This document shows positions 2,843 to 29,182 of a stretch of 64,000 bases of DNA, one piece after another; position 1 is the stretch's first letter, and every line of letters begins with the position of its first letter. Source of the DNA: an uncultured delta proteobacterium (GTDB lineage: Bacteria > Desulfobacterota > Desulfobacteria > Desulfobacterales > B30-G6); contig CAWGLD010000005.1 in the NCBI GenBank assembly GCA_963823335.1, forward strand, positions 224,001 to 288,000, given 5' to 3'. The position numbers were made by a program, and so were the translations under genes. Below the pieces are notes generated by a model that saw only the letters and a list, made by a program, of their open reading frames with translations, made no database searches and was not told where the DNA came from.

Positions 2843-3649
2843 ATGGCCAGACTGGGGATAATTGCCTGCCAAATCCTTGAGCTTGAGTTAGCCCATCTGC
2901 TTGTCAATGACATCGAGGTATTCGGTATTACCGTACTTGATAACGGTTTTGGCGATGGATTTTTTCGAGCGCTGAAACAGAAAGGGGAGAAAGCACTCAG
3001 GCTCACCGGAGACACGGGGAAGTATCTATCGCTCGAACCAGATCAGCTTGAGGTTGTTGTTCAGATCATGGAGTTAGGCCTGCACACGGTAATCAGAGCC
3101 CTCCGAACAACTGTGATCGATGCAGTGTCGGAGATGAGCACGCACGTGGATGCAATAGTGCTCGGGTATGGTCTGTGTGGGAATGCGCTCGACAATCACC
3201 AAGAGATCATCAGGGATATCGATATCCCCCTATTCATGCCCATGGATGAGGATCATACTGTGGACGACTGTGTCGGGCTTATCATTGGCGGACGCAAGGC
3301 TTATTATGAAGAGCAGTGCAAAATTGCCGGCACTTTTTTTATGAATGCCGGTTTTTCCCGTCATTGGAAGGACCTTTTACAGAAAGCGAATGCGGTTAAG
3401 TTTGATGAGGCGATGTCCAAGCGTATCATGGCGGGATATGAGAGAAGTCTTTTGCTGATCACGCCGGTTCTTTCCGAAGAGGAGATGGCTGCCAACATAG
3501 AAGATTTCAATCAAACATATGGACTGCGGACCGAGGTTCGTAAGGGAACGCTGGAGATTCTCGAGAGAACGTTGGTCAGGGGAAAGAATTTCGTATTGAA
3601 AAAAGGCGATAACCAGCATACTGATCGCGAAAAAAGAGCGAAAACTTAG
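2843..3649 (+). CDS. DUF1638 family protein (corrinoid methyltransferase-associated)
   Basis: IIACQILE, ELGLH, LGYGLCGNAL, DDCVGLIIGG motifs; starts directly after the upstream stop. Confidence 0.8.
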   Translation: MARLGIIACQILELELAHLLVNDIEVFGITVLDNGFGDGFFRALKQKGEKALRLTGDTGKYLSLEPDQLEVVVQIMELGLHTVIRALRTTVIDAVSEMSTHVDAIVLGYGLCGNALDNHQEIIRDIDIPLFMPMDEDHTVDDCVGLIIGGRKAYYEEQCKIAGTFFMNAGFSRHWKDLLQKANAVKFDEAMSKRIMAGYERSLLLITPVLSEEEMAANIEDFNQTYGLRTEVRKGTLEILERTLVRGKNFVLKKGDNQHTDREKRAKT

Positions 3650-3829: not shown

Positions 3830-4180
3830 TTAAAAATTAAAAACCTTTCCCTCAGCAATCAAATCGATTAGGTGAGGTGCGCCGTCCAGCAGCATATTGG
3901 AAAAAAACTTGGCCTCGTCCACCTGACGAGCGTTTGCGCACGGCGGTCAGACACCTATGGGAACTTCATTTTCGACCAAATAGGGTAAGTAATCATCGGG
4001 GCAGTCACCGGTAACGCTCTTTTCTTTGAAGTCGCGGGTGTTATCGGCCCACTTGACGCCATCCTCGATCAGGAAGATATTTACATTGTGCCCCTTTTCA
4101 TGGGTAAATTTTGCGAATTGAAAACATCTTGTGGCCAGATTGACATCATTCTTGCTGAGCGTGTATACAAAATTTGCCAT
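3830..4180 (-). CDS. DsrE-family selenoprotein (U-P-P-C), 116 aa
   Basis: GAGGAGG RBS; GHNVNIFLIEDGV DsrE motif; UGA at 3949-3947 reads through to PPCANARQVDEAKFFSNMLLDGAPHLIDLIAEGKVFNF*; SECIS-like hairpin 3930-3914. Confidence 0.9.
3914..3930 (-). promoter_or_regulatory. SECIS-like hairpin (DsrE)
   Basis: CUCGUC-AGGUG-GACGAG, 6-bp stem; loop starts 22 nt after UGA. Confidence 0.8.
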
Positions 4181-4265: not shown

Positions 4266-4778
4266 TCAAAGTTTCTGTTGACGGATCCCTGAGTAAACAG
4301 CTTTGCAGATTTCCGAAATACCTCCCTTTAGACCATCAGGGTTTTTGAATCCCTCGGTTCTTTTCAGGCTTTCAATATAGCCCTCTGCGGTTAAAAAAGA
4401 TTTGAGTCCATGCTCATCCGGCTCATCCGGTTTGATTTGGAACACCCAGCCCTCACCATATGGATCCCGTGATATGAGGGGCACATTCAGTTTTGAACTG
4501 TGGTTGAAATGGATGTGTCCGGAAAGAGGGGCATCAATATATTGGATTTTTCCGGTGATGCAAAAAATGACTGTTTGGCCCCTGGGGACGTGTTGCCCAT
4601 CCGATACAAGCCAGTCCAGATCGTTGATGCCCCCGGCCAGAACCAGGGAGGGTTCCGTGAGCCCGAAGACGATGAATTCTTGATTCGATTTGGCCCATAA
4701 TCCCTGCTTCCCAAAATAGCCTCGATCGCCCGGGACGCTTACACGTTTTCCCAAAAATTTTTCAATGACAGCCATCAA
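4266..4778 (-). CDS. GcvH-like (lipoyl-carrier fold) protein with C-terminal extension
   Basis: GLT, TGKIQYIDAPLSG, ISRDPYGEGWVFQIK match H-protein; extra tail GGISEICKAVY. Confidence 0.75.
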   Translation of the reverse strand: MMAVIEKFLGKRVSVPGDRGYFGKQGLWAKSNQEFIVFGLTEPSLVLAGGINDLDWLVSDGQHVPRGQTVIFCITGKIQYIDAPLSGHIHFNHSSKLNVPLISRDPYGEGWVFQIKPDEPDEHGLKSFLTAEGYIESLKRTEGFKNPDGLKGGISEICKAVYSGIRQQKL

Positions 4779-5010
4779 ATCCTCCTAAACCCATGACACT
4801 AAAATCTTTCATGGTGCTAGTTGATCATTAATGTCCTGTGTTGTTATCAGAAGATTATGTGTTGTAGAAAATCGTTTTACAAGCATTATTTTATAGTAAG
4901 AAGGAAGAAACCTCGAAACTGAAAATGCCACGAAAAGAGTATTGATATCTTGAAAAGACCATTGTAACAATACGCATCTTATTTTCATTGTGGCTGAAGG
5001 TGTTTTCAGG

Positions 5011-5961
5011 ATGAGTAAAATCCGGCGATATATTTATCAAACCCAGGGTGTCTGTCCCCCGGAAATTCATTTCCAGGTAAAGGACGCCATTCTTGAAAGT
5101 GTTCGTTTTGTTGGTGGAGGTTGCCCAGGGAATGCCCAACTTGTAGCGCGTCTGCTGGAGAGGAGGCCTATTGCCGAGGTGTTGCCGATCCTAAACGGGA
5201 TCGAGTGCAGCAAAGGAACATCATGCCCGGACCAGTTGTCAGAGGCAATAAGAAGGATGCAGCGCGGAGATCTCCGGCCGACTTCTTCCTTTCGTGTGGA
5301 GCAAGACTTGTCCTCAGAAAAAATGATCGGTCTCATCGGTGACCTAAACGGTGATCACCGGGTACTGCAACAGTTGATCGGATCAATGGCGGCATGTGGC
5401 GTTGAAGCGATTTTTTGCGCCGGTAACCTGACCGGTCCGGAAAAGGCAGATCGAAAGCTGATCAAGGAGATCGACGAAAAGGGTCTTCGGGCCATTACGG
5501 GAGACAGGGACTGGACGTATGCATGTGAAATGGAAGCGGCGAAGTTTCCGTTCATAGACAATAAAACTAGGGATTTTCTCGTCCGCCTACCTCAGGTGAT
5601 CAGCTTTCGCATAGGGGACAGAAATGGCGTGTTGTTTTTCGGCGATTATCTCCAAAGCATGTCGGGATATTCTGATTTTGAACCGTACGCACTGGAAATC
5701 AATATGGTTTGCGGCTTAACGGATTTCATGCGGGACGAAAGCGTATTCCCGGCACTGGAGGCCATGACCCCGCAGTTTCGAGCGGATATCATCGTATTCA
5801 GCCAAACCGGAAGATGGGGACATTGGCACGTGGCTGGCAAAGATTTTATCGGTCTGGGGCCCGCTGTCGGTATGGACGGCATGGCATGGGCGAGCCTGGA
5901 AATCAAATCCGGGGAGTTGAAATTTTCTAAAATAGTCACCAGTAACGCAGGCGGAGTCTAA
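5011..5961 (+). CDS. TSCPD (TIGR03905-like) domain fused to degenerate metallophosphoesterase domain
   Basis: TQGVC..GGGCPGN..CSKGTSCPDQL, then IGDLNGD, CAGNL, TGDRD (calcineurin-like pattern with altered ligands). Confidence 0.75.
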   Translation: MSKIRRYIYQTQGVCPPEIHFQVKDAILESVRFVGGGCPGNAQLVARLLERRPIAEVLPILNGIECSKGTSCPDQLSEAIRRMQRGDLRPTSSFRVEQDLSSEKMIGLIGDLNGDHRVLQQLIGSMAACGVEAIFCAGNLTGPEKADRKLIKEIDEKGLRAITGDRDWTYACEMEAAKFPFIDNKTRDFLVRLPQVISFRIGDRNGVLFFGDYLQSMSGYSDFEPYALEINMVCGLTDFMRDESVFPALEAMTPQFRADIIVFSQTGRWGHWHVAGKDFIGLGPAVGMDGMAWASLEIKSGELKFSKIVTSNAGGV

Positions 5962-5962
5962 T

Positions 5963-6271
5963 ATGGTAGAACTTGTTCTTGTTGATGTGCTGCTAACCGA
6001 TTTCAATCAATGAATCGCCTGTGTCTATATGGCAGAATCGGTAAAGGTTTTACCGGAAGATATCAAGGCGATTATCGACGTTTATGAGTGGGATATGCGT
6101 ACACGTGAGGGTGTACAGCGCTTTAAAGAACTGAAAGCCAAATCCTTGCCGAGTGTCGCCCTGGACGGGAAACTGGTCTGGGAGTCCATTATTCCCATGC
6201 AGGAAGAAATCATTGCCAAAATTCAGGATCTTTACCGCCAAAAGAGTCAAGGAGTTTTAGATGCATCTTGA
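5963..6271 (+). CDS. Thioredoxin-fold selenoprotein (U-I-A-C), 102 aa
   Basis: ATG 5963 with GGAG RBS; MVELVLVDVLLTDFNQ-UGA(6011-6013)-IACVYMAES aligns with QCAACGYMMES of 21079; SECIS-like hairpin 6039-6055. Confidence 0.9.
6039..6055 (+). promoter_or_regulatory. SECIS-like hairpin
   Basis: CGGUAAA-GGU-UUUACCG, perfect 7-bp stem; loop starts 32 nt after UGA. Confidence 0.75.
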
Positions 6272-7241
6272 AGATGTGAATATAGAGGGGTTTAAATCAT
6301 TTTCCGAAGAAACCAACATGAGCTTCCAGCCGGGAATTGGTGTGATTATCGGCAATAACGGTGTGGGGAAGTCAAACATTCTGGACGCGATCGTGTGGGC
6401 GATGGGGGACAATGATCTGAATCGTATTCGCTGTTATGAGCAGGATGAGCTGTTTTTTGCAGGGAGTAAAGATTATCCGCCGGCATCAAGTATACGTGTA
6501 GAACTGAACCTGAAAGAGAGTCAGGAAAAGGACGCTGTTGGAATCAGGTTGGCGCGCGAAATGAACAAAGAGGGCCGTAATCGGTATTATATACAGGAAA
6601 AATCGTGTGATTGGGGCCTGTACAAACAGAATATTGATCGATACCATCTGGCTCATGCACTGAAAACAATTATTCGTCAGGAACACATCAACGACCTGCT
6701 TCGGCTAGATCCCCTGGAACGGGTTCAGTCGATTGGTGAACTGTTAGACAAGAAAGAGGACAATGAGGTGATTGTCCATTTACAGCAGAAAGTCGATCCC
6801 ATTTTCAAACGGTATATGTCCTATCTCATGCCCTCGGCCCATGTGGCCCTTCTCACACCGGAGTTTGACGGGAAGTTTGGAATGGATGTTGAAGTGATGC
6901 TGTCCGGCAACCGCGTGCGTCGTGTGCACCAGCTTTCAGGTGGTGAAAAAGCCGTAACCAGCCTGGCAATTAAGCTGGCCCTGTTTCGCGGGCTTGAAAG
7001 CCCCTTTTATCTGCTCGATGAAGTGGAACCCTCCCTTGACTACACCAACCACAAGTCCATGCAGGCTTTTTTAAAGGACGTTGCTTCCGAGAAACAACTG
7101 ATTATGATTACCCACCTACGCAGCACCATGGAGTTGGCCAACACACTTCACGGGGTACGCACCCGCTGGGACGGATCTTCATTCATGAAGTTCTATTTTG
7201 TTATGGAAGAAAGACTTTTAAGACTCTACAAGTGTTGCTAG
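6261..7241 (+). CDS. Miniature SMC-family ABC ATPase (head domains only), C-terminal CC
   Basis: GFKSF, Walker A GNNGVGKSN, IIRQ Q-loop, LSGGEK signature, LLDEVE Walker B, ITH H-loop; 326 aa, no hinge or long coiled coil. Confidence 0.8.
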   Translation: MHLEDVNIEGFKSFSEETNMSFQPGIGVIIGNNGVGKSNILDAIVWAMGDNDLNRIRCYEQDELFFAGSKDYPPASSIRVELNLKESQEKDAVGIRLAREMNKEGRNRYYIQEKSCDWGLYKQNIDRYHLAHALKTIIRQEHINDLLRLDPLERVQSIGELLDKKEDNEVIVHLQQKVDPIFKRYMSYLMPSAHVALLTPEFDGKFGMDVEVMLSGNRVRRVHQLSGGEKAVTSLAIKLALFRGLESPFYLLDEVEPSLDYTNHKSMQAFLKDVASEKQLIMITHLRSTMELANTLHGVRTRWDGSSFMKFYFVMEERLLRLYKCC

Positions 7242-7361
7242 CCCGGAAACACCACGAACCTGATTGGCCCTGGTGCTAGGTATTTCAGCTAAAGGCAACC
7301 AAAGCATTCCTCGTCAAGTTTTACAAAATAGTCGGGCTAAGCCTGTTTAAAGGGGCACGCT

Positions 7362-8300
7362 ATGCTAACGGAAAAAATCCTCAAGGGGGATATAAAAGCT
7401 GCTGCGCGGTTGATGCGGGATATTGAAGACGACATTCCGGAAACGCACCATGAGCTCAAGCGCTTGTTAGCACATACCGGAGGCGCCCACATCATCGGTC
7501 TGACCGGTGCACCTGGCACAGGCAAATCCACGTTGATAGACAGCATGATCCACCTTCTGCGGAAGGAGGGAAAAAGCGTCGGTATTTTGGCCATCGATCC
7601 CACAAGCCCTTTGTCCGGCGGGGCCATCCTGGGCGATCGTGTGCGCATGCAAAGACATGCCGAGGATAAAAGCGTGTTCATCAAGAGTATTGCCACCCGG
7701 GGTCAATTAGGTGGCCTCGCGCGATCTGCCTTTGGTATCGTTTCGGTCCTGGATGCCATGGGCAAGGATGTAATCCTTGTCGAAACCGTTGGTGTCGGCC
7801 AGGATGAAGTGGATGTCATGCGCCTGGCCCACACCACAATCGTGGTTGTCACGTCGGAAATGGGTGACGGTATTCAGGCTATAAAATCCGGCATATTGGA
7901 GATTGGCGATATCTTTGTTCTCAACAAGGCCGACCAGATGGGCTCGGATACAACACCGAATAAAATCAAGATGATGCTCAACATGCGACAACTCCGGAAA
8001 GGTGCCTGGAATCCTCCGGTTGTGCAGACCATTGCTATTCGTGGTCAAGGTGTCGATGAGCTGCTGCGGCAGGCGCAAAAGCATCTTGTTTTATTAAAGA
8101 CCCAAGGACTGGATCAATTCCGAAAACAAAAGGCGCTTGCCGAACTCACGACCCACTTAAAAACTATTCTGGTTGAGCGTGCCTTATCGACCTTGGAACT
8201 CAAAAATGAGTGGCAAACGATAATTGACGGTATCGTCAAGGGTGAAATCGATCCCTGCAGTGCCGCAGAAGAACTTGTATCTGAACTATTGAAAAAATAA
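7362..8300 (+). CDS. meaB: MeaB/ArgK-family GTPase
   Basis: GAPGTGKST, AIDPTSPLSGGAILGDRVRM, ETVGVGQDE, NKAD. Confidence 0.9.
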   Translation: MLTEKILKGDIKAAARLMRDIEDDIPETHHELKRLLAHTGGAHIIGLTGAPGTGKSTLIDSMIHLLRKEGKSVGILAIDPTSPLSGGAILGDRVRMQRHAEDKSVFIKSIATRGQLGGLARSAFGIVSVLDAMGKDVILVETVGVGQDEVDVMRLAHTTIVVVTSEMGDGIQAIKSGILEIGDIFVLNKADQMGSDTTPNKIKMMLNMRQLRKGAWNPPVVQTIAIRGQGVDELLRQAQKHLVLLKTQGLDQFRKQKALAELTTHLKTILVERALSTLELKNEWQTIIDGIVKGEIDPCSAAEELVSELLKK

Positions 8301-8317
8301 GGGACGATTTACGGAGA

Positions 8318-9364
8318 TCAGGTCTGGGCACGGTCTTTTAGATTTGATTTAAGGCAGGTTCTTAGCTGTTGCAGTATTTCTTCAGCCTGGATATTCCATC
8401 CGATAAATGCCAGTAGCGTTCCTGCTGGTTCCTTCCAATGGGACCATTCAGCTTTGCCTCCAACGAAGTTGACAAAAGCGGCGCGGTCCTGAAACTGAAC
8501 CGGTCCTTTTATACGAAAAAGTTCCCAGGGCAGCCCATGGATAAAAGCGTTGAAACAATCCTCGTCCAGCGCTTCGACGGACTGAAAGGAAAATGTCACG
8601 AACCCGGAAGCATCAATGCCTTTCACGTTTCCACATCCTCCCTCATCAGGTTTTATTTCTCGACTGTCCGAATCCTTTTTCGAGATAGCCGAATCCGGCG
8701 AATAATGCTTGAAGAAGCTGATCGGTTTCAAGTCAACCACATTAGAGGTGTGTTTTTCAAGAAGGGCTGCAGGATCGATATTACACTGGATGGTCGGTAT
8801 CACACGGGTTGTGGGGAAGAGCTCGTGGATTTCTTTCAGGTACGATGATATACGCTGCTTTTGGAGCAGGTCGATTTTGTTCAGTAAAATCAAGTCGGCT
8901 ATTTCAAGCTGATGATAAAACAGAGCCCCGAATATTTCGCGGCCTTCCCACAAATCAGCATCCAGCACGGTAATGGTTTTTGTTAGCGCGAGTTTTCCAA
9001 ACAGGTCTTTTTCCTGGAGTATGGCTCTGATGGATATCGGGTCGGCCACGCCGGAAGGCTCTATCAGAATCCGTGACGGGCTGAAACGTTCCATGATGCT
9101 TTGGAGAGCCTGCCTGAGATCCGCGACGAGCGTGCAGCAGATACATCCGCTGGTCAGTTCGACAACATCCGACCCGCTGTCTTTCAAAAGCGAACCGTCA
9201 ATACCCACATTTCCGAATTCATTCACCAGGACAACCGTACCTGACAGGTCGTCGTCCCATGTCAGAATACGTTTCAATAGCGTTGTTTTCCCTGAACCCA
9301 GAAATCCCGATACTAAAATGACATCTGTGCTGATTTTTTGTGATAATTGAGAAGTATTTTTCAT
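8318..9364 (-). CDS. COG0523/CobW-family metallochaperone GTPase
   Basis: SGFLGSGKTT, NEFG, GCICC, EPSG, NKID, RIKG. Confidence 0.9.
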   Translation of the reverse strand: MKNTSQLSQKISTDVILVSGFLGSGKTTLLKRILTWDDDLSGTVVLVNEFGNVGIDGSLLKDSGSDVVELTSGCICCTLVADLRQALQSIMERFSPSRILIEPSGVADPISIRAILQEKDLFGKLALTKTITVLDADLWEGREIFGALFYHQLEIADLILLNKIDLLQKQRISSYLKEIHELFPTTRVIPTIQCNIDPAALLEKHTSNVVDLKPISFFKHYSPDSAISKKDSDSREIKPDEGGCGNVKGIDASGFVTFSFQSVEALDEDCFNAFIHGLPWELFRIKGPVQFQDRAAFVNFVGGKAEWSHWKEPAGTLLAFIGWNIQAEEILQQLRTCLKSNLKDRAQT

Positions 9365-9478
9365 ATTGATTTCACCTTCCCGATAGTTACACTGCTTTTA
9401 AAATGGTGTCAATTTTGTTATGGTATCACTGTTTGATTTACCGCAGCGGTATGTAAGATATGATTGGAGGTCGGGCGA

Positions 9479-9997
9479 ATGTTAAAATTGAACTGGCAGG
9501 ATGAGTTTGTGCGGGAGGGGCACCGGGTGTTTTTCGCCGGTCAACCCTTTGCCATGCATTGCCATCATTACAATATTAATCTGCAGAAAACACTCGAAGA
9601 CACGCTTGGGGATGAAGGTATACAACTGATAATCCGGTCTGCGGAAGAATCCGGTTATTGTAACTTCCGGAACCTGGTAGATCAGTTCAGTTATCTCAAA
9701 ACCGTAAAATCAAAGCTTGAAATGGCTGCCGCAATGTACCAGAATTACGGCCTTGGGGTCATTCACCTGCAGGAAATCGATACCGGCGGCGGTCGCATCA
9801 TAAGCCCTTCCAGTCACCATGTTACCGGGTGGTTGGCCAAGCATGGAAGGCGAAAGTCGCCTGGTTGCCATTTTACCTGTGGTTGGGTTGCGGGGGTGCT
9901 GGCGGCTATTTTTGACAAGCCCAAGGGGTACTATCACATGGACGAGGTGCACTGTAAAATGGTGGGGGACCCGGATTGTGTTTTCATGGTTTCATAA
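9479..9997 (+). CDS. V4R-domain protein
   Basis: GGAGG RBS; MHCHHYN, GLG, CHFTCGWVAG, EVHCKMVGDPDCVF. Confidence 0.8.
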   Translation: MLKLNWQDEFVREGHRVFFAGQPFAMHCHHYNINLQKTLEDTLGDEGIQLIIRSAEESGYCNFRNLVDQFSYLKTVKSKLEMAAAMYQNYGLGVIHLQEIDTGGGRIISPSSHHVTGWLAKHGRRKSPGCHFTCGWVAGVLAAIFDKPKGYYHMDEVHCKMVGDPDCVFMVS

Positions 9998-10030
9998 AAT
10001 TTAGATTAAGATCCTTACAGGGAACAGCCC

Positions 10031-10633
10031 ATGGCAATAGACGGAAATAAGATCATCCATGCGGTCATGGAAGGCAGCCGAATACGAGAGGCAAAAGGGA
10101 TTATCCCTCTTTTCGGTGTTTACCTCTCCATTTTATCGGTGGGATACTATAATAAGCTCAGTTTTGACTTCGAGCGTAGGATGGGTGATACAAACGCTGT
10201 CGAGGCCCGATCATTATTGACCAGGGCGGCCCAGGAGTGTGGTTACGCTACATTTCAGGGTATACGAAATTCGTGGGAATGGGATGAAATCATTAAACCC
10301 ATGATTGAATCCGAGAAAGACCAGGTCGAAGGATTTATTTCCGTAGCGGTCGCATTCGGGTGGGGGGATCTTGAAGTCAGGGAACTCATACCCAATGAGA
10401 AGCTCATCATTCGTGCGACTGAGTCTTATGAAGCCGGCGGCTATCTCAATGATTATGGTACAGCCGTCTCCAGCAAATGCTATATGCTTCGTGGTGTAGC
10501 GGGAGCTTTTATGGACCTTCTTTATGGGGACGCATATCCTGACGGCTGTTTTACATTTATGGCAGAGGAGCGGTTCTGCCGCGCAAAGGGAGATTCATAC
10601 TGTGAATTCATTGTTCGCAGATCATCTCATTAA
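10031..10633 (+). CDS. V4R-domain protein
   Basis: FGWG, SYEA, CYMLRGVAGA, ERFCRAKGDSYCEF. Confidence 0.8.
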   Translation: MAIDGNKIIHAVMEGSRIREAKGIIPLFGVYLSILSVGYYNKLSFDFERRMGDTNAVEARSLLTRAAQECGYATFQGIRNSWEWDEIIKPMIESEKDQVEGFISVAVAFGWGDLEVRELIPNEKLIIRATESYEAGGYLNDYGTAVSSKCYMLRGVAGAFMDLLYGDAYPDGCFTFMAEERFCRAKGDSYCEFIVRRSSH

Positions 10634-13753: not shown

Positions 13754-14710
13754 ATGTTTCAGCTCAGTAAGGAGCAAAAGGTTTGTGAAGTCGGTGGAGT
13801 GAAATTCGGTGGCCAGCCGGGTGAATACCCTTGTGTGTGTGTGAGTTCTATTTTTCAAAAAGGAGATAGGATTTTTGACGGAAAACGGAAGGAAGGCTTT
13901 AACGAGAAGAGGGCTGAGGAACTTTTAAAAGAACAAGAACGTCTGACCGTGGAAACCGGGGTTCCGGGAATGGCGGACATCGTCGCGAATACAGGAGAAG
14001 AGTTTAAAACCTATATCGATTTTGTTTCATCGGTCAGCAACATGCCGTTTTGCATCGACGCCTGGGTAATGAAACCGAAACTGGCCGGAGCGGCATATTG
14101 TGCCGAGAAAGGGTTGATGGATCGCATGTTCTACAACAGTCTCACCGTGTGGGAAAAGGATCTGGAGACTGAAATCCGCGAAATTTATCAACTGGGAGTT
14201 AAACACGTGCTCTTGGTCGCCTTTGACCAGGAAGACCAGATGCCCAGCGGAAGAATTACAGGTACCCAGAGACTGCTGGATGCGATTGATAAGGCGGGGG
14301 CGGAATTTGAAAGCATTTTCGTGGACACATCGGTAATGAACGGTCCGGCCACTGCCTTTTGTAGTATTGCCAATAGAATGATCAAAGAAAAGTGGGGTTT
14401 TCCCACCGGCAGCGCACCCAGCAACGGCTCCTATATGGATCTGACTAGATTCAAGGAAAACCTGGGTTTCAAAGGTTGGTCAGCCACGGATGCGGCTCTT
14501 GAATCTCTAGCTGCTTTTTTTTATCATGACATAATTTTTTCCGGACCAATGGCGGGAGCCGGCCGAATATTTCCTGCGGTTGCAGAAGCGGAGGCGTTTC
14601 TGGCTACCGCTGTTTTTGCCGAAACTAAAAAACTGCCAAAAGAACCGAGTCATCCATTGTACAAACTGTTCCCAGATTTTGTGGAGCAATTAAACGTTTT
14701 AGCCGGATAG
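13754..14710 (+). CDS. MtrH-family methylcorrinoid:pterin/THF methyltransferase (CmuB/MecF/MtgA-like)
   Basis: GAGGAGG RBS; MFQLSKEQKVCEVGGVKFGGQPGEYP N-terminus; FYNS; WGFPTGSAPSN. Confidence 0.85.
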   Translation: MFQLSKEQKVCEVGGVKFGGQPGEYPCVCVSSIFQKGDRIFDGKRKEGFNEKRAEELLKEQERLTVETGVPGMADIVANTGEEFKTYIDFVSSVSNMPFCIDAWVMKPKLAGAAYCAEKGLMDRMFYNSLTVWEKDLETEIREIYQLGVKHVLLVAFDQEDQMPSGRITGTQRLLDAIDKAGAEFESIFVDTSVMNGPATAFCSIANRMIKEKWGFPTGSAPSNGSYMDLTRFKENLGFKGWSATDAALESLAAFFYHDIIFSGPMAGAGRIFPAVAEAEAFLATAVFAETKKLPKEPSHPLYKLFPDFVEQLNVLAG

Positions 14711-14755
14711 ACATAAACTATTATCTACCCAAACATTTTTGAAGGGAGTTGAATC

Positions 14756-15808
14756 ATGGCAGAGCTTACACCAAAAGAACGCGTCATGCGATTATTGCGA
14801 AAAGAACCCATTGACACCATGCCGTTTTTCAGCGGGATGGGTATGGTCGTGATGCCGGGTATCGACAAAGCGGGTGTCAATTTCGCAAGCATTCATACCG
14901 ATGCAGAGCGGATGGCCCGTTCAGCGCTGTGGTCTTCGAGATTAATGGGATTTGACTGTGCAGTCATACCCTATGATATGACCATGGAATCGGAAGCGAT
15001 GGGCAATACGATCAGTCTTTATAAGGACAGTGAAGACATCCTCTATCCAACCATCCCGCAAAAAATATGGAGCACCATAGATGAGGTGAAGATTCCCGAC
15101 AATATCGTCGAACTGGGACGTCTGCCACTGATCCCCAAAGCCATCGAGGTTATCAAGAAGGAAGCTCCCGAGCTTCCCATCGGATGCTGGCAACTGGGGC
15201 CGTTTACACAGGCAGGCCAGATTCTGGAATTGGATTTGATTCTCAAGGGCGTGTTCAAGCAGAAAGCCAAGGTCGAGGAACTGCTGGATAAATTGACTGA
15301 CATGATCATCAAGATCGGTCAGTGGATGCAGGCCTCCGGGTGTGACTATATGACACTTCGTGAGCCAGGTGTTGCCGCCGATCTACTAAGCCCGCGGACC
15401 TTTCGCGATATCATCAAACCCAGGTTGACACGTATTCTGGAAGCGTGGGGCTCACCTAAATTACTGCACATATGTGGACAGACCGATCCGTTGATAGAAA
15501 TGATGAACGAGTGTGGTGCTGATGGTCTGACCGTTGATATAAAATGCAATCTTGCCGAAGCTAGGAAAAAACTGGGTAACGATGTGCTCCTGATGGGAAA
15601 TCTGGACACCTACACCATGACCTGTGATGAGAAAACACCTGTAGATAAGACTGTCGCGCACGTGAAAGAGATCATCGACAGCGGTGTCGACGCCGTTATG
15701 CCGGGATGTGATTTGTGGCCAGCAATCATTGAAGAAAATATGAAAGCTGTTTCGGATACGACCCACACGTACGGGAAAAAACCCAGCCCCGCCGTTGGAA
15801 GACTTTAG
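14756..15808 (+). CDS. MtaA/CmuA-family (UroD fold) Zn methyltransferase, Cys form
   Basis: LTPKERV, ESEAMG, GRLP, GPFT, Zn ligands HICG and PGCD. Confidence 0.88.
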   Translation: MAELTPKERVMRLLRKEPIDTMPFFSGMGMVVMPGIDKAGVNFASIHTDAERMARSALWSSRLMGFDCAVIPYDMTMESEAMGNTISLYKDSEDILYPTIPQKIWSTIDEVKIPDNIVELGRLPLIPKAIEVIKKEAPELPIGCWQLGPFTQAGQILELDLILKGVFKQKAKVEELLDKLTDMIIKIGQWMQASGCDYMTLREPGVAADLLSPRTFRDIIKPRLTRILEAWGSPKLLHICGQTDPLIEMMNECGADGLTVDIKCNLAEARKKLGNDVLLMGNLDTYTMTCDEKTPVDKTVAHVKEIIDSGVDAVMPGCDLWPAIIEENMKAVSDTTHTYGKKPSPAVGRL

Positions 15809-15880
15809 ACGCTCGTAATGTGACACCCTTGCAGGAACGGTTGAAATAAATGAAATCTGAAAAATAAGGAGAGAATACCT

Positions 15881-16540
15881 ATGGCAACAAAAGAAGAGTT
15901 ACTCGAAAAAATGAAAACAGCGGTTATCGAATGGCAGGAAGACGATATCGGCGGATATGCCCAACAGTTTCTGGATGATGGGCACGTGGCCCTGGAAGGG
16001 ATTATGGATGGATTGGCGGCCGGGATGGAAGTTGTCGGTGACTTGTATGATCGTAACGAATACTTCGTTCCCGAGGTGTTGATGTGTGCAGATGCGTTAT
16101 ATGCGGGTCTGGCTGTCCTGAGGCCCCATGTCCCAAAGTCGGAAAGTGGACCCAAAGCCCAGGTCGTTATCGGAAGCATTCAGGGAGATGTACACGATAT
16201 CGGCAAAAATCTGGTCAAGATGATGTTTGACGTGGCCGGATGGGAAGTTCACGACCTGGGTCGCGATGTGCCGCTGGAAAATTTTGTTTCAGAGCAGCTG
16301 CGGACCGATTCGGAAGTTGTGGCCATGTCGGCCATGATGACCACGACCATGATGGGTATGAAGAAGGTCATAAAAATGATCAAAGACAAGAATCCTGACG
16401 TGGCCATCATGCTGGGCGGGGCGCCGGTAACCAAGGATGTGGCCAATCTCTTTGGAGCGGACGGCTATGCCGAATCAGCTGGAAATGCCGTATCGGAAGG
16501 GATTAAAATGATCGGCCGCCTGCGGGAAATGCACAAATAA
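15881..16540 (+). CDS. Methyltransferase corrinoid protein (MtaC/MtbC-like)
   Basis: Cap domain GMEVVGDLY..YFVPEV; GDVHDIGKNLV (DxHxxG); SAMMTTT; GGAP. Confidence 0.93.
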   Translation: MATKEELLEKMKTAVIEWQEDDIGGYAQQFLDDGHVALEGIMDGLAAGMEVVGDLYDRNEYFVPEVLMCADALYAGLAVLRPHVPKSESGPKAQVVIGSIQGDVHDIGKNLVKMMFDVAGWEVHDLGRDVPLENFVSEQLRTDSEVVAMSAMMTTTMMGMKKVIKMIKDKNPDVAIMLGGAPVTKDVANLFGADGYAESAGNAVSEGIKMIGRLREMHK

Positions 16541-16560
16541 AAACAGCCCTGATGGACGAT

Positions 16561-16606
16561 ACCCCGAACCATGAGTATCCCGTGAGAAGTGGTTCGGGGT
16601 TTGTTG
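16561..16606 (+). terminator. Hairpin / possible partial terminator after corrinoid gene
   Basis: ACCCCGAACCA...TGGTTCGGGGT followed by TTGTTG. Confidence 0.45.
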
Positions 16607-16673
16607 TGCGCTGAACATAAGTCATCCGCGTACGGTAGGCAATGCTAATTCAATTTGAGGAGGAATCTGGCGA

Positions 16674-18734
16674 ATGAGCGACGATAAAGCAATGGTAATC
16701 TTTCAGCCTTCTGGCCGAAGAGGGGAGATTGCTAAAGGGACCAATATAATTGAGGCATCTCGGTTGCTCGGGGTGGATATCGAAGCCCTTTGCGGGGAGA
16801 AGAAAGTCTGCGGGAAATGTGTTGTACGTATTGAAGAGGGGACTTTCGAAAAATACGGTATTACATCGAGTATAGAGAATGTGAGTTCATGGCAGGAGGA
16901 AGAGGAAAAATTCATCAATGCGGAGCGAAAACAGAAGGGATTTCGCTTGGGGTGTATGGCGAAGATCAACGATGATGTCCTCATTTTCGTTCCCGAGGAG
17001 TCACGTGCAGGGAAACAGGTGGTGAGCAAGGCTGCCCGAGATATTCACATCGAGCACGACCCGGCCGTGAAGGTTTACCATGTGCAGGTGGCGCCGCCAA
17101 CCTTTGAGGAACCCCTGGGTGATTTTGAGCGGGTTTGCCGGGGACTTCAACGGGAACACGGTCTAGGCGATCTGGGCATCGATGTTTTTGCACTCAGACA
17201 GCTGCCGGTTGCTCTGCGAGATGGGGACTGGGCCGTGACCGTGAGTGTGTGGAACGACAAAGAGGTCATCCGTGTTCGGCCCGGCAAGGAAGAGAAGTCA
17301 TACGGCTTGGCTATCGACGTTGGGACGACGACCGTTGCCGCTTATTTTTGCGACCTGACGACCATGGAAGTTATTGACACGGTTTCCATGATGAACCCTC
17401 AGTGTAAATACGGTGAAGACGTGATGGCACGCATCACGTACCATATGACCACACCGGATGGTCTTAAGCGGATGAGCGACGACATCATCGAAGGCGTAAA
17501 CGAGATGATCGACAAGGCGATTGATAACACCTTCCCGCCCAAGAAAAAGAAGAAGAAAAGAAAAGGGGAGGAGGGACCGGTAGAATATGTGGAAGCCCCT
17601 GAAGAAGGAAAGACCTACCTGAGGCTAACACATGAGGACATCGAGGATATCACCATCGGATTTAACACGGCCATGCACCATATATTTCTCGGGTTGGATC
17701 CGGAGTTTGTCGGACTTGCACCATTTCCGCCGGTCATTCACCATAGTATGGACATCAAAGCCAGAGACCTGGGTATCGGCATCAATCCTTCGTCCTACCT
17801 GTTCGTGCTTCCCATTGAAGCCGGATTTGTAGGTGCGGACAATGTGGGGGTACTGCTTGCCGAAGAACCCTATAAGCATGAAGAGAATCAACTGATCATC
17901 GATATCGGTACCAATGGTGAGTTGGTGCTGGGTAACCGGCACAAGTTGATTTCATCGTCATGTGCAACGGGCCCGGCCCTCGAAGGTGCTCAGATCGCAT
18001 TTGGTATGCGGGCGGCACCGGGAGCCATCGAACGGATATTGATCGACCCGGTAACCAAGGAGACAGACTACAAGGTCATCGGGCGTGATGCCTGGCGAAA
18101 GTTTTCCAAACCCAAGGATATGAAAGCCAAGGGCATCTGCGGTTCGGGTATTCTTGACCTTCTGGCCGAGTTGTACACATCGGGTGTGATCTTAAAAAGC
18201 GGTGTGTTTAACAAGAAGGCCCTGAAGGATCACCCCCGTTTCAGAATCAACCCGGATACCAAACAACCCGAGTTTGTTCTGGCCTGGGCTGAAGAGTCGA
18301 GTATCGACAAAGATATCGTCGTGACACAAAAGGATATCCGGCAGATTCAACTGGCCAAGGGGGCCTTGTATGCCGGCTGTAAACTGATGGTCAAACGGAT
18401 GGGACTTGAGAAGGTCGACCGGGTTAAAATAGCGGGTGCATTCGGCACACATGTGGATCGAACCAAGGCTCTGGTCATGGGTTTGTTCCCTGATTGTGAT
18501 ATCGACAAGATCGAAGGTGTCGGCAATGCCGCGGGTGACGGCTGTAGAACCGCCCTGTTGAACAGGAAGAAGCGTGCGGAAGCCAACTGGTGTTCTCAAA
18601 ATGTTGAATATATCGAACTTACCGTCGAAGAGACATTTCAGCAGGAATTTATGGAAGCCATGCAACTGCCGCATATGACGGATAAATTCCCACACCTCAA
18701 GGGTATCGTTCCGGATGACATTCTAAACCAATAA
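16674..18734 (+). CDS. ASKHA-type reductive activator of corrinoid proteins (RACo/DUF4445) with N-terminal 2Fe-2S
   Basis: CGEKKVCGKC..RLGC; DVGTTT; YGEDV; GFVGAD; DIGTNGE; GICGSG; AGAFG; GNAA. Confidence 0.92.
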   Translation: MSDDKAMVIFQPSGRRGEIAKGTNIIEASRLLGVDIEALCGEKKVCGKCVVRIEEGTFEKYGITSSIENVSSWQEEEEKFINAERKQKGFRLGCMAKINDDVLIFVPEESRAGKQVVSKAARDIHIEHDPAVKVYHVQVAPPTFEEPLGDFERVCRGLQREHGLGDLGIDVFALRQLPVALRDGDWAVTVSVWNDKEVIRVRPGKEEKSYGLAIDVGTTTVAAYFCDLTTMEVIDTVSMMNPQCKYGEDVMARITYHMTTPDGLKRMSDDIIEGVNEMIDKAIDNTFPPKKKKKKRKGEEGPVEYVEAPEEGKTYLRLTHEDIEDITIGFNTAMHHIFLGLDPEFVGLAPFPPVIHHSMDIKARDLGIGINPSSYLFVLPIEAGFVGADNVGVLLAEEPYKHEENQLIIDIGTNGELVLGNRHKLISSSCATGPALEGAQIAFGMRAAPGAIERILIDPVTKETDYKVIGRDAWRKFSKPKDMKAKGICGSGILDLLAELYTSGVILKSGVFNKKALKDHPRFRINPDTKQPEFVLAWAEESSIDKDIVVTQKDIRQIQLAKGALYAGCKLMVKRMGLEKVDRVKIAGAFGTHVDRTKALVMGLFPDCDIDKIEGVGNAAGDGCRTALLNRKKRAEANWCSQNVEYIELTVEETFQQEFMEAMQLPHMTDKFPHLKGIVPDDILNQ

Positions 18735-18757
18735 ATAGTATTGAGATCGAAACACAC

Positions 18758-19156
18758 ATGCAGAAAAAACAACATGAGAGCGAATCTGCACGAAATGTAT
18801 CCGTAACATCACATGCGGTCTGTATTCATGTGATGCCCGGTATCTGCGGATTTACCGCTGTTATCAGCGCATGCAAACTGGAAAATAAGAAAATACGTTT
18901 CCAGATTTCAGATTCAGAGTGTGGGCAGATCAAGATGCTTGCGGCAACTTTGCAAGAAATGGATTGGAAAGACCTGTTTGTGCCCCTGACACGCAACCCG
19001 GTGTATGTAAATGCCGAGAAATCAGGATGCCACCCGTCATGTGTCATACCTGCGGCGATGCTCAAAGCCGCAGAGGTAGCGATGGGAATGGCGATTCCAA
19101 AAGATGTTTATTTCCGATTTCAACCGTGTGACGGGGAGCCGATCCATGAAGACTAA
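18758..19156 (+). CDS. DUF6951-like Cys-containing protein
   Basis: PGICGF, SEC, CHPSCVIPAAMLKAAEV...PKDV. Confidence 0.65.
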   Translation: MQKKQHESESARNVSVTSHAVCIHVMPGICGFTAVISACKLENKKIRFQISDSECGQIKMLAATLQEMDWKDLFVPLTRNPVYVNAEKSGCHPSCVIPAAMLKAAEVAMGMAIPKDVYFRFQPCDGEPIHED

Positions 19157-19742
19157 AACGGTGGTACCGTTTCGATCCAATGCAGGCATATCTTACGCGT
19201 TGATGAACCGGCTTTTGAGCAGCGGAAAAAAATACGGGCTGAACGCAATATTCCCATTCAGCCCGGAAAAAATTGTCGTTGCCGAATGGGTACTTTTAAA
19301 GTGCCAGTACGGCTGCAGTTGCTACAATACCAACTGGACATGTCCCCCAACGACACCGGATCCTGAAAGGGCACGCGCGATTCTAAACGAATACTCGTTG
19401 GCGTTGTTTCTCGTCGGCAGCAGGAACTGCTCAGATTTTTACCTGGACAACTCGCGTAAACGCGCCAGTCAGGTAAAATGTTGGAAAGGCACCATATCAC
19501 TGGAAAGGATGCTTTTTCTTGAAGGTTACTATAAAGCGTTCAGTCTTGTGGGTGAATGCTGCGCTCTGTGCAAGAGCTGTGCATATCCGGAAGTTTGCCG
19601 GTTTCCACAGGAAAAAAGGCCCGCAGTGGAGTCTTTTTCGATCGATGTGATCAGCACCTTGCACAATCTTGAGACGAACTCGACCGTGGCAACAAAACTG
19701 GACGACAATTTCAACTATTTCTCGATCATTCTTCTTGAATAG
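19146..19742 (+). CDS. DUF2284 predicted metal-binding protein
   Basis: KCQYGCSCYNTNWTCPP, CALCKSC..CRFP..RPAVES. Confidence 0.8.
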   Translation: MKTKTVVPFRSNAGISYALMNRLLSSGKKYGLNAIFPFSPEKIVVAEWVLLKCQYGCSCYNTNWTCPPTTPDPERARAILNEYSLALFLVGSRNCSDFYLDNSRKRASQVKCWKGTISLERMLFLEGYYKAFSLVGECCALCKSCAYPEVCRFPQEKRPAVESFSIDVISTLHNLETNSTVATKLDDNFNYFSIILLE

Positions 19743-21078: not shown

Positions 21079-21468
21079 ATGGCAGATAAAATACACATAG
21101 ATGTTCTGACCCTGGACAGTGTTCAATGCGCTGCCTGCGGGTACATGATGGAGTCGATTGCCGCGCTCCCAGGTGATATACAGGCGGTGATCGAATACAA
21201 GGAACACTCGATTAAAAACAAAGAAGGTGTCGGTAAATTTCTCGAGCTCAAAGGCAAGGTGCTCCCAACGATTTGCATTGAGAACGATCTGGTGTTTGAG
21301 AGTATCATCCCGCAATACGAGGAACTCATCGACGCTATGGCTCAAAGAGCACCCAACGATGAATTACGGGAAAAGATTAAAGCCCTTCGCGAGCACGGTT
21401 TCGAGTTTGACAAAATACAGGAAAACCTGGCCAAGGCGGGCTCCGGTCAAAAAACGCGCGCGAACTGA
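21079..21468 (+). CDS. Thioredoxin-fold protein (C-A-A-C)
   Basis: AAGGAG RBS; DVLTLDSVQCAACGYM, VLPTI, FESIIP. Confidence 0.85.
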   Translation: MADKIHIDVLTLDSVQCAACGYMMESIAALPGDIQAVIEYKEHSIKNKEGVGKFLELKGKVLPTICIENDLVFESIIPQYEELIDAMAQRAPNDELREKIKALREHGFEFDKIQENLAKAGSGQKTRAN

Positions 21469-21511
21469 GAATAAGCGTTTAAAAGAACGAACATCAACTA
21501 TTTGCAATGAT

Positions 21512-21549
21512 GCGATTGGGGGCCCCTCGGGGCCCTCAATCGCCTTCTT
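21512..21549 (+). terminator. Putative intrinsic terminator
   Basis: GCGATTGGGGGCCCC-TCG-GGGCCCTCAATCGC followed by CTTCTT. Confidence 0.55.
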
Positions 21550-21602
21550 GGGAATGACAACTTTTTCGAAAACGGATAGTTCCCGATTATAGGGTCCCCA
21601 CT

Positions 21603-21905
21603 ATGTCCATAAATCATCTTGAGGGGGTACTGGCGTTAAAGCAGCTTGTAATTAGGCATGGACTGCCGAGAGACGATTATGCGTTCTTTGGTGTCAAATG
21701 TCCTTATTGCGGGAAAATGGATCGCATCTGCCGTTTGGATCCTCCCGGGAGACTGAAGCAGGCTATGGGTCCCGAGGACACACTGTCATATGCAGAGCGT
21801 TGGAATACGGTTTCCCTTCCTGATCATTTGTTGGGTGTGTGTAAATTTTGCCACAACCTCCTGAAGCTGGACGAGACGATGAAGGCCGCCCCCCTGGCCG
21901 AGTAA
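21603..21905 (+). CDS. Hypothetical Zn-finger-like protein
   Basis: CPYCGK and CKFC pairs. Confidence 0.65.
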   Translation: MSINHLEGVLALKQLVIRHGLPRDDYAFFGVKCPYCGKMDRICRLDPPGRLKQAMGPEDTLSYAERWNTVSLPDHLLGVCKFCHNLLKLDETMKAAPLAE

Positions 21906-22040
21906 CACCCTATTGTAGTAATTTAATTCACTGCCGAACCCGCTGCCCGATGAAGGCGAATCCACATGTTTCTTTATAACTATTTTGGAAGATCAAGCCA
22001 ATGAGAACCCCCCATGCAAACCTGATACTGGAGGAAGATA

Positions 22041-22286
22041 ATGAAAGTTGAAGTTTTGGGACCGGGATGCAAACGATGTGAAAAACTTTACACCAACACG
22101 ACCGAGGCTGCATCGGCTTTCAGTGCCTCAAACACGATTGAGGTTGTAAAGGTGAAAGACATAAAATATTTTGCAAAAATGGGGGTATTCATGACGCCCG
22201 GGCTAGTTATCGACGGTGAGCTTATTTCAACCGGAAAAGTGTTATCCCCCGAAGAAATCAAAAAGAAAATTGAGGAGAAAATGTGA
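22041..22286 (+). CDS. Small redox-active disulfide protein (thioredoxin family)
   Basis: GGAGG RBS; VLGPGCKRC, GVFMTPGLVIDG. Confidence 0.88.
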   Translation: MKVEVLGPGCKRCEKLYTNTTEAASAFSASNTIEVVKVKDIKYFAKMGVFMTPGLVIDGELISTGKVLSPEEIKKKIEEKM

Positions 22287-22289
22287 TCC

Positions 22290-23324
22290 ATGTTTGACAC
22301 GACGCGGGTATATTTAATTACGGGTTTTCTCGGAAGCGGCAAAACCACATTGTTGAATCGGATTATCGACGGCTTCCCCAAGGACAAAAAACTGACCCTC
22401 CTGGTAAACGAATTCGGCGAGGTAGGTGTGGACGGCACCTTGGTGGAGGGTGACGACATCGATATGATGGAAATCAGCAAAGGGTCGATTTTCTGTGTCT
22501 GTGTCAAAACCGATTTTATCAAAGGCCTGTATGAACTCAACACGAAAGTCAAACCCGATGTCCTTTTGATCGAATCCACCGGGGTGGCAAACCCCACTGA
22601 CCTGAAAAGAGATCTCAAACTTCCTATATTCAACGATCGGTTTCATTTTCAGGAGCAGTTCTGCGTCATCGATGCCGTCCATTTTATGGATGCTTTCGAA
22701 GTCTATGCTTCCCTCGAAAAACAGATTGCCTCGTCCAGTGTCTTTATTATTAATAAAACGGATATCGCAACGCCTGAAGGTATCGAAGCGATCAAAAAGG
22801 TGGTCCGGCAATTTCATCCGGACCCCTTGTTTTATGAGACCACCTATGCTGATTTACCACTGAATCGATTTTTTGACTTCAATGGGGGGCACAACCCGGA
22901 TACGCAGAGAACAAAAGCTTTGGTTGAGCATACCCATGTGCTATCCGAACAGGAGTTGGAGAGATTTCTCGATGATATGCTCGACAATCCTGACCTGGAA
23001 ATCACCCCACCGGATGCCCTTGTTTCCGTGGCCTATCAATGGGAAGGCAACAACCTTGAGCAGATTAAAAACATGGCCAGGGCATTGCCTGCCGATATCG
23101 TGCGTGCGAAAGGTTTTGTTGTCGCAGAGGGCAGCTTATTTATTTTCAACTATGTCATGGGAACCTGGAGTATAGAACCATCGAGGAAGCCGATGGAGCG
23201 CGTCGTTCATAAAAACATCATTGTCTTCATCGGTCCTCAGGAAACGATGGCAGGAATTGAATCTGTGATAAGCGGTGAAAACTGGAAAAGCAGGGGGATT
23301 TTTCAGCCCTATTCCGAGGGATAG
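22290..23324 (+). CDS. COG0523/CobW-family GTPase (atypical GSIFCVC motif)
   Basis: TGFLGSGKTT, NEFGEVGVDG, ESTG, NKTD, RAKG. Confidence 0.88.
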   Translation: MFDTTRVYLITGFLGSGKTTLLNRIIDGFPKDKKLTLLVNEFGEVGVDGTLVEGDDIDMMEISKGSIFCVCVKTDFIKGLYELNTKVKPDVLLIESTGVANPTDLKRDLKLPIFNDRFHFQEQFCVIDAVHFMDAFEVYASLEKQIASSSVFIINKTDIATPEGIEAIKKVVRQFHPDPLFYETTYADLPLNRFFDFNGGHNPDTQRTKALVEHTHVLSEQELERFLDDMLDNPDLEITPPDALVSVAYQWEGNNLEQIKNMARALPADIVRAKGFVVAEGSLFIFNYVMGTWSIEPSRKPMERVVHKNIIVFIGPQETMAGIESVISGENWKSRGIFQPYSEG

Positions 23325-23367
23325 CGTTGCGATTCAAACATCATTTGCAGACGATTGAGTTGAAAAG

Positions 23368-24291: not shown

Positions 24292-24316
24292 AATAGTCAT
24301 AAGAGGAGGCAGCCGA

Positions 24317-29031: not shown

Positions 29032-29182
29032 GATTTTCCCATTTCTGAAATGTTTGATTTAATACAGGATATTGCCTGTATTTATTAACAGTCGGCATTT
29101 TGACTGTCAATTCATTTTTATATGGCTGCATGCCGTGGCACCTCTTTTGTTGTCACACCGTTGTTGTAAGGGATAACCTGGA

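Follow-up and report, generated by a model that had tools for sequence, protein, structure and literature searches.

A head-only SMC-type ATPase coupled to a thioredoxin-like selenoprotein in a B12 island of an uncultured Desulfobacterota bacterium: a candidate accessory module of corrinoid methyltransferase systems

What does an SMC-type ATPase reduced to its head do when its gene lies within a vitamin B12 island, directly behind those of a selenoprotein and a phosphoesterase-like protein? The question is raised by a 64,000-nucleotide stretch of DNA (hereafter the window) from an uncultured delta proteobacterium of the Desulfobacterales (assembly GCA_963823335.1, contig CAWGLD010000005.1, positions 224,001 to 288,000), in which three coupled genes occupy positions 5011-7241 of the forward strand. 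They encode, in this order, TSCPD_PE, a TSCPD domain fused to a phosphoesterase (PE)-like domain; SecTrx, a thioredoxin-like protein containing selenocysteine (Sec); and sSMC, a short SMC-type ATPase. The features of the cassette, including a hairpin resembling a selenocysteine insertion sequence (SECIS), are as follows:

5011-5961, forward strand: TSCPD_PE, from ATG 5011 to TAA 5959-5961; TSCPD domain at residues 8-83, followed by a degenerate metallophosphoesterase-fold domain at residues ~100-316.
5963-6271, forward strand: SecTrx, a 102-residue thioredoxin-like selenoprotein with the motif U-I-A-C; Sec codon TGA 6011-6013, stop TGA 6269-6271.
6038-6056, forward strand: SECIS-like hairpin with a GGU loop, the 5' arm of which begins 24 nt past the last base of the UGA.
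6261-7241, forward strand: sSMC, a 326-residue head-only SMC-type ABC ATPase, from ATG 6261 to the stop TAG 7239-7241, with YKCC as its C-terminus.

The answer favored here, with a probability of about one half, is that the cassette serves as an accessory module for methyltransferase systems that depend on corrinoids (vitamin B12) and is not a DNA machine. Under anaerobic conditions, corrinoid methyltransferase systems drive the utilization of methanol, methylamines, glycine betaine, and methoxylated aromatics. The structure of the genes, the recoding of UGA as Sec, the conservation of the families, their folds, and the synteny across phyla place the cassette with the corrinoid systems and argue against a role on DNA, and it is likely that the module functionally belongs to B12 methyltransferase islands. 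The three genes form a real, conserved, and coupled module: the gap between TSCPD_PE and SecTrx is 1 nt (TAA 5959-5961, next ATG 5963), and SecTrx and sSMC overlap by 11 nt, in line with the first-pass annotation of this DNA, which had described genes 1 nt apart or overlapping. Contigs from four estuary metatranscriptome runs match the cassette at 95% identity or more and bridge both gene junctions, including the UGA: one covers positions 5775-6193 (the end of TSCPD_PE, the UGA, and the hairpin), and two others cover the SecTrx/sSMC junction (6177-6400 and 6131-6460). These contigs weakly hint at joint transcription; they do not prove a single transcript, and DNA may be included in the libraries.

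Pfam analysis of sSMC reports a hit with SMC_N (E 1.3e-43) and none with hinge or coiled-coil families. The NCBIfam SMC model (TIGR02168 / TIGR02169) scores 188.1 bits, not reaching its cut-off of 567.35, and covers the protein by its two ends only (model positions 2-119 and 1073-1168). The Rad50 and SbcC models score 32-53 bits, below the SMC score, and sSMC is, on these profile scores, closest to true SMC proteins and not to Rad50 or SbcC. The Walker A, Q-loop, signature, Walker B, D-loop, and H-loop motifs are invariant (23 of 23 aligned members), as is the YKCC ending, and the arginine at the finger position is kept. Domain scan and alignment thereby uphold the initial description of an SMC-like protein of 326 residues that has all ATPase motifs, lacks arms and hinge, and ends in YKCC. 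Of the canonical SMC that the host genome encodes elsewhere (996 bits, in an open frame of 1217 residues), residues 2-121 and 1066-1197 have counterparts in sSMC, with 33% and 31% identity, respectively; a stretch of 57 residues stands in for the ~945 residues of arm and hinge, and 19 residues are added at the C-terminus. The family is characterized by this specific C-terminal helix and by the cysteine pair that closes it, which is present at 22 of 22 sSMC loci as two or three cysteines within the last four or five residues (YKCC in 19, and CFC, CSC, or CCC in the remainder); the neighborhoods of these homologs, examined as well, show conserved synteny. A further cysteine, C58, adjoins the arginine-finger position. 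It was invariant in a first alignment and is a cysteine at 18 of the 22 loci, leucine at three, and serine at one, and a disulfide switch between C58 and the C-terminus was rejected as a general mechanism on that account.

The AlphaFold2 model of sSMC (pLDDT 75.6, pTM 0.77) exhibits no coiled coil past a short helical stub. Its top Foldseek match is an engineered Geobacillus SMC head (5h68; E 4e-20, TM 0.72), and it superposes best on SMC heads made in the laboratory (5h68 and 4i99; E ~1e-20 to 1e-19, TM ~0.72). Database searches returned 815 relatives (search range 179-571 residues), the best 120 of which span the entire query with 65-100% identity and lengths of 326-396 residues. A set of 1.84 billion representatives at 50% identity contains no more than three full-length short clusters (329, 323, and 316 residues); beyond these and some fragments, the next matches are canonical SMCs of ~830-1320 residues with 31-38% identity. 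Because its nearest relatives are proteins of 316-329 residues and the canonical SMC is kept in the host genome, sSMC is a conserved family and not a deletion remnant; full-length smc genes as nearest homologs, the outcome that would have spoken for a remnant, were not what the searches returned. Two SMC-like proteins, P0274 (624 residues) and P0316 (614 residues), have a shortened coiled coil, an Arg-Cys pair at the finger position, and a Cys-Cys end; these could represent intermediate stages of evolution or, alternatively, a sister clade. At another locus (L096/L097, G169:C53:39741-40719), the sSMC homolog is frameshifted near residue 217, with one TGA counted in the second piece; either a pseudogene or a misassembly may explain this.

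SecTrx is a selenoprotein, with Sec recoding at TGA 6011-6013. The in-frame TGA is kept in 12 of 12 orthologous genes (the window and 11 loci), with conserved peptide on either side (DVLLTDFxQ-U-xACVYM), and also in both tandem SecTrx copies of the loci L098 and L106. Paralogs with cysteine occur at the loci L014 and L018 and in the window at positions 21079-21468 (CAAC), the latter aligning to SecTrx from residue 1 with 48% identity over 84 residues. Hardly any variation is seen in the nucleotides 3' of the TGA, which form the hairpin with the GGU loop (window 6038-6056), for which RNAalifold analysis of 11 sequences reports 13 pairs, two of them with compensatory changes. An Rfam scan of positions 4700-7500 (E up to 1) returned no family match, hence no curated SECIS match, and selB is present in the host genome (373 bits, above its cut-off). 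Pfam analysis does not return any hit for SecTrx when it is read with upstream residues and the stop; the exact 102-residue protein gives a weak match with Thioredoxin_3 (E 0.013) and another with NF047660, a UxxC thioredoxin-like selenoprotein model (41 bits for a cut-off of 105, E 1.6e-10), and no NCBIfam model attains its cut-off. Judging from these matches, a thioredoxin fold is probable. A second tandem Sec paralog lies just upstream of sSMC in L098 (2575-2790) and L106 (7834-8091), exhibiting the motif U-A-S-G, without a resolving cysteine. In L106, a locus of a second phylum, four small tandem genes are found just upstream of TSCPD_PE (5423-6569), three of which match Thioredoxin_3; the islands that carry the cassette are unusually rich in small thioredoxin-like proteins.

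TSCPD_PE comprises two domains. The N-terminal one is a TSCPD domain (PF12637; E 7e-15, 55.5 bits, above the cut-off of 22.8), which also scores just above the cut-off of TIGR03905 (68.4 versus 67.7 bits), a model of a stand-alone protein of ~78 positions, the domain being fused in TSCPD_PE. The second domain remains under the cut-off of Metallophos_2 (21.9 versus 27 bits). In the AlphaFold2 model (pLDDT 86.7), VIA-align analysis assigns a metallophosphoesterase fold to residues ~100-316, with Z scores of 18.0 to 1nnw, 16.1 to SapH, 14.2 to the MJ0936-type 1s3l, 13.9 to YfcE, and 12.7 to Vps29, versus only 9.3-10.4 to Mre11/SbcD. Foldseek agrees on this fold (E 1.3e-9), Atlas features place the protein at 0.94 to Metallophos clusters, and the best sequence match of the family profile in the PDB is Vps29 (E 5.5e-5), the two having a GN...GD pattern in common. 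The family counts 586 matches of similar length. Invariant in 40 of its sequences are the four cysteines C15, C38, C66, and C72, together with G138-N139, G164, and D167, and residues ~221-256 form a long, highly conserved helical segment. Motifs I-III read DLN, GN, and GDRD, versus DTH, GD, and GNMD in a canonical YfcE-like gene of the same window (55908-56411), and across the family conservation is lacking at the motif-I Asp, at the position of the motif-III Asn, and at the final His of GHxH. Alignment and profiles agree here with the early observation that the phosphoesterase had lost its metal ligands (DLN, GN, GDR) and carries a four-cysteine TSCPD domain; as far as these motifs tell, the phosphoesterase domain is most likely a non-catalytic scaffold.

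Several assignments were considered for parts of TSCPD_PE and set aside. The matches of its TSCPD domain with IscU/NifU-like scaffolds in the PDB are faint (E ~0.1), and hhalign comparison with an IscU-like protein of the host reports a probability of 0.12. TSCPD domains are also, presumably, found at the end of some ribonucleotide reductases (RNRs), and the second TSCPD match of the host genome, located in an open frame of 738 residues, is consistent with this. Class II RNR has a zinc domain rich in cysteine, which is described, in the portion of the source available to us, as having six cysteines with CxxC-type spacing at the extreme C-terminus, with no naming of the Pfam TSCPD domain there (PMC5704485); this description was not used as support. 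The N-terminal extension of the 396-residue protein P0109, which looked HMA-like by eye, was dropped, with no Pfam match at an E-value of 0.01 or below.

The genomic organization around sSMC was compared at 12 full-length loci from species genomes, 11 of them labelled Delta/Desulfobacterota and one a Firmicutes metagenome-assembled genome (MAG). SecTrx is encoded directly upstream of sSMC in 11 of the 12, and TSCPD_PE upstream in nine. The flanks encode DUF1638, CobW, MtrH, URO-D-type methyltransferases, a corrinoid protein, RACo, DUF6951, DUF2284, and V4R proteins, and the DUF1638 gene adjoins TSCPD_PE in the three loci L008-L010. On several contigs, DUF1638 is fused to TSCPD_PE in proteins of 416-582 residues (P0235, P0149, P0404-P0406), with DUF1638-TSCPD-PE fusions of 543-582 residues among them, a gene fusion that ties the cassette to the DUF1638 of B12-dependent methyl transfer. 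In a sample of 401 genomes of the phylum, sSMC is encoded by 10, from four families. In the nine carriers other than the window's host, SecTrx is upstream of sSMC in all nine (one partly masked) and a CobW-like gene is downstream in eight, the contig of the ninth ending there; a CobW-like gene also follows sSMC in L098 and L106. TSCPD_PE is within the flanks in four of these nine and, as revealed by whole-genome search, on another contig in one further. The same search did not find it in four of the ten carriers of the sample (92-100% complete), nor was it found in two further carrier genomes. Because it was not found in these six carriers, the pair of phosphoesterase and ATPase is not an obligate core; the constant core is SecTrx and sSMC, usually followed by a CobW gene.

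The association extends across phyla. The divergent metagenome locus L098 and the genome G792, which belongs to the phylum of the Firmicutes MAG, share the gene order TSCPD_PE, SecTrx, SecTrx2, sSMC, CobW, corrinoid protein, RACo, and MtrH; G792 is one of two carriers among 401 genomes of this second, Firmicutes-type phylum. The locus of the Firmicutes MAG itself (L019) encodes an sSMC homolog that is 44% identical and ends in CFC, preceded, in place of the selenoprotein, by a 122-residue protein with Fer2_BFD and zf_CopZ domains (6540-6908). DUF6951 tracks the cassette, being found in 8 of 10 carriers versus 14 of 391 non-carriers; the carriers are a few lineages of related genomes, and this count, like the others, is not made on independent samples. 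RACo, found in 9 of 10 carriers, was rejected as a discriminating marker, being present in 315 of the 401 genomes. Synteny is conserved, with the cassette embedded in corrinoid methyltransferase islands in two phyla, and the link to B12 goes well beyond the hint that had been drawn from the association of TSCPD domains with RNR.

In the window, the B12 island extends from 1.5 to 40 kb. The features of most direct relevance are:

2843-3649, forward strand: DUF1638 protein (Pfam E 1e-34), a domain fused to TSCPD_PE in other organisms.
7362-8300, forward strand: MeaB-type G3E GTPase (TIGR00750, 315.9 bits, above the cut-off).
8318-9364, reverse strand: CobW/COG0523-type GTPase (Pfam cobW, E 2.6e-44).
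13754-19742, forward strand: corrinoid methyltransferase core, with MtrH-family and MtaA/CmuA-family methyltransferases, corrinoid protein, RACo, DUF6951, and DUF2284.
21079-21468, forward strand: cysteine paralog of SecTrx (CAAC).

The island also encodes BtuF-like binding proteins, FecCD/ABC transport genes, a TonB receptor with DUF4465, two ATP:corrinoid adenosyltransferases, two MeaB proteins, three CobW-family proteins, and a thioredoxin-reductase-like protein. Two adjoining small V4R-type proteins (9464-10633, forward strand) are kept beside the cassette and the CobW gene in L008-L010. Upstream of the cassette, a DsrE-like gene (3830-4180, reverse strand) is called as 77 residues, and reading through TGA 3947-3949 gives 116 residues with U-P-P-C. 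The read-through form did not return any NCBIfam match; DsrE-like selenoproteins are a family listed in a review (PMC13188914), and the product is probably one of them. A second redox/metal block (21079-25462, forward strand) comprises the cysteine paralog of SecTrx, a CobW gene, the thioredoxin-reductase-like gene (233 bits for a cut-off of 343), and an overlapping CobW-like gene, and is a possible electron source for SecTrx. Further downstream, a MeaB of 499 residues (26468-27967, reverse strand) carries an N-terminal extension of ~195 residues without family match, and the two ATP:corrinoid adenosyltransferase genes (28513-31813) are separated by an Oxidored_FMN gene and an open reading frame of 214 residues without Pfam match.

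How might such a module work? We infer the physical interactions of the cassette, its ATP-driven dimerization, its substrate, and its chemistry as follows. SMC heads dimerize on ATP, and the intact motifs and the fold suggest that sSMC heads would do likewise, their ATP cycle serving as a switch or clamp that acts on protein partners. The C-terminal cysteine pair of sSMC, the UxxC motif of SecTrx and, where present, the four cysteines of the TSCPD domain, which the catalytically dead, Vps29-like phosphoesterase scaffold would carry, might form a thiolate/selenolate relay. This relay would hand a metal ion or a corrinoid to the neighboring corrinoid protein or to the Zn-dependent MtaA-type methyltransferases or, alternatively, would reduce and repair them. 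Its partner would usually be the adjoining CobW-family GTPase, and possibly DUF1638 and the RACo reactivation proteins. The redox and metal flavor of the components is consistent with such a relay: the UxxC motif, the C-terminal cysteine pair, the Fer2_BFD and zf_CopZ domains in L019, and the thioredoxin-reductase-like gene and three CobW genes of the island. Metal or cofactor trafficking is a tentative assignment of its action, and an action purely by disulfide or redox repair seems unlikely. The fuller picture, in which SMC heads are re-used off DNA in a machine that is driven by nucleotides, depends on selenium, and serves anaerobic B12 methyltransferase systems as a chaperone or in repair, is offered as a possibility, with odds somewhat short of even. 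The first-pass annotation had proposed a module for ATP- and redox-dependent remodelling of cofactors or proteins; the module is indeed conserved and its context fits, while the role itself we infer.

As far as the accessible part of PMC5764234 tells, methionine is required by a mutant in DUF1638 of Phaeobacter inhibens, whose corrinoid methionine synthase is split, and DUF1638 co-occurs with a RamA-like activator, the authors proposing no specific function for it; a 'reductive recharging' reading is repeated in the consulted portion of PMC12478193. No functional study of the cassette was found in a literature search that left out most subscription journals. In the available portions of the D. 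kuznetsovii papers PMC5770442 and PMC13541210, a term search did not bring up the genes for the ATPase, TSCPD, or thioredoxin.

Several observations weigh against the assignment to corrinoid systems. The module is rare, being found in 10 of the 401 genomes of the phylum although 315 of them have RACo; most corrinoid systems therefore work without it, and it would be a specialized accessory. RACo was not seen in one carrier (G134, in 830 contigs), nor DUF6951 in two, and TSCPD_PE was not found in six carrier genomes. In the Firmicutes MAG, no corrinoid genes are found within 7 kb of sSMC. Identity of sSMC to the host SMC head is still 31-33%, so that sSMC may retain some DNA binding, and the carriers come from few lineages of related genomes, so that their counts are not independent. 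With C58 a cysteine at only 18 of 22 loci, the C58/tail disulfide switch cannot be general.

Among other explanations, the cassette could be a regulatory switch that senses ATP and thiol/selenol redox or metal status and gates the activity or expression of the island. Redox sensors typically carry cysteine and Sec sites of this kind, DNA binding is known for SMC heads, and a PAS histidine kinase, a LuxR-type regulator, and the V4R proteins are encoded nearby in the window, as is a PadR regulator at one related locus. However, none of the three proteins contains a DNA-binding or signalling output domain, and the gene most tightly associated after that of SecTrx encodes a CobW-type metallochaperone GTPase, which points to delivery and not to sensing, making such a switch improbable.

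A minimal SMC or SbcCD-like complex, the ATPase clamping DNA and the phosphoesterase being the nuclease, would have a role in repair or chromosome maintenance and would merely lie near B12 genes. The nearest relatives outside the sSMC family are genuine SMCs, all ATPase motifs and the finger-position arginine are kept, and a phosphoesterase fold paired with an ABC ATPase recalls Mre11-Rad50. An echo of SbcD/SbcC had indeed been noted early on. This analogy carries little weight, the fold of the phosphoesterase domain being nearer to the YfcE, ApaH, SapH, and Vps29 types (Z 12.7-18.0, the highest value being that for small metallophosphoesterases) than to Mre11/SbcD (Z 9.3-10.4); moreover, the ATPase is nearest to true SMC, the metal ligands of the phosphoesterase are lost family-wide, and the fusion was not found in six carriers. 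The ATPase has no coiled coil, hinge, or zinc hook, and a canonical SMC is already encoded elsewhere in the host genome. None of the loci examined showed a kleisin or nuclease gene; for kleisins, this means that none was noticed in the annotated loci, ScpA/B not having been specifically searched for. Synteny with corrinoid genes, in contrast, holds across two phyla, and an action on DNA is highly improbable.

An ABC ATPase module of anti-phage or anti-plasmid defence (MADS, Gabija, Septu, or Lamassu-like) that came to lie in a B12 island of mobile nature is scarcely plausible. PADLOC analysis of sSMC does report a best match with mad3 (126.6 bits, E 4e-37) and many weaker ones (GajA, PtuA, AriA, LmuB), and the taxonomic distribution is patchy, but scores of this size do not exceed those for generic SMC heads (188 bits to TIGR02168). 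Neither TSCPD_PE nor SecTrx is matched by PADLOC, no nuclease, methylase, or other defence partner is found in the loci examined (neighbors being scanned by Pfam only, not by PADLOC), and the same metabolic neighbors recur in distant lineages. Lastly, a decaying smc remnant with chance neighbors, for which the make-up of the protein (both halves of an SMC head, linked by 57 residues) and the frameshifted gene in the carrier G169 might speak, is refuted by the 815 homologs of similar length (the best 120 at 65-100% identity), by the invariance of the catalytic motifs, C-terminal helix, and cysteine pair, and by the synteny conserved in two phyla.

If the assignment to corrinoid methyltransferase systems is correct, the cassette defines a new accessory function in their islands and provides a handle on the unexplained requirement for DUF1638 in B12-dependent methyl transfer. 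To our knowledge, factors for the maturation or repair of corrinoid methyltransferases are poorly known beyond the RamA/RACo activators. The SMC head would be re-usable outside chromosome biology, and we know of no other SMC-family ATPase with a job that does not involve nucleic acids, sSMC being in that case the first. SecTrx would add an unannotated family of selenoproteins, the genes of which are truncated at the UGA by gene callers.

Like the bacterial SMC heads of 5h68 and 4i99, sSMC has the two-lobed ABC head fold with all motifs intact, and it differs from bacterial SMC by the absence of arms and hinge, by its additional C-terminal helix ending in a cysteine pair, and by a B12 methyltransferase context instead of chromosome functions, no ScpA/ScpB gene being noticed nearby (these were not specifically searched for). 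As in Mre11-Rad50 and SbcCD, a gene for a phosphoesterase fold adjoins that of an SMC-superfamily ABC ATPase; in contrast to these, sSMC has neither a coiled coil nor a CxxC zinc hook, and TSCPD_PE, dispensable in several carriers, lacks the intact set of DxH, GD, GNH, H, and GHxH. TSCPD_PE shares with Vps29, an inactive metallophosphoesterase scaffold, the fold (Z 12.7) and the GN...GD replacement in motifs II and III, whereas Vps29 is a eukaryotic retromer subunit without TSCPD and the TSCPD_PE family has its own conserved segment at residues ~221-256. SecTrx resembles UxxC thioredoxin-fold selenoproteins such as NF047660 (HUIPC motif) in being small and thioredoxin-like, with Sec first in its redox motif, cysteine paralogs, and a hairpin 3' of the UGA; it is not a member of NF047660 (41 versus 105 bits), its motif context being DVLLTDFxQ-U-xAC. 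Finally, by an analogy drawn from general knowledge, SufC in SufBC2D, MeaB, and CobW are soluble machines that use nucleotides to service metal or cofactor centers together with Cys-rich scaffolds. The ATPase of the cassette is of SMC type and not of SufC type, and the profile comparison of the TSCPD_PE family with the IscU-like protein of the host was without support (0.12). MeaB and CobW genes are direct neighbors of the cassette.

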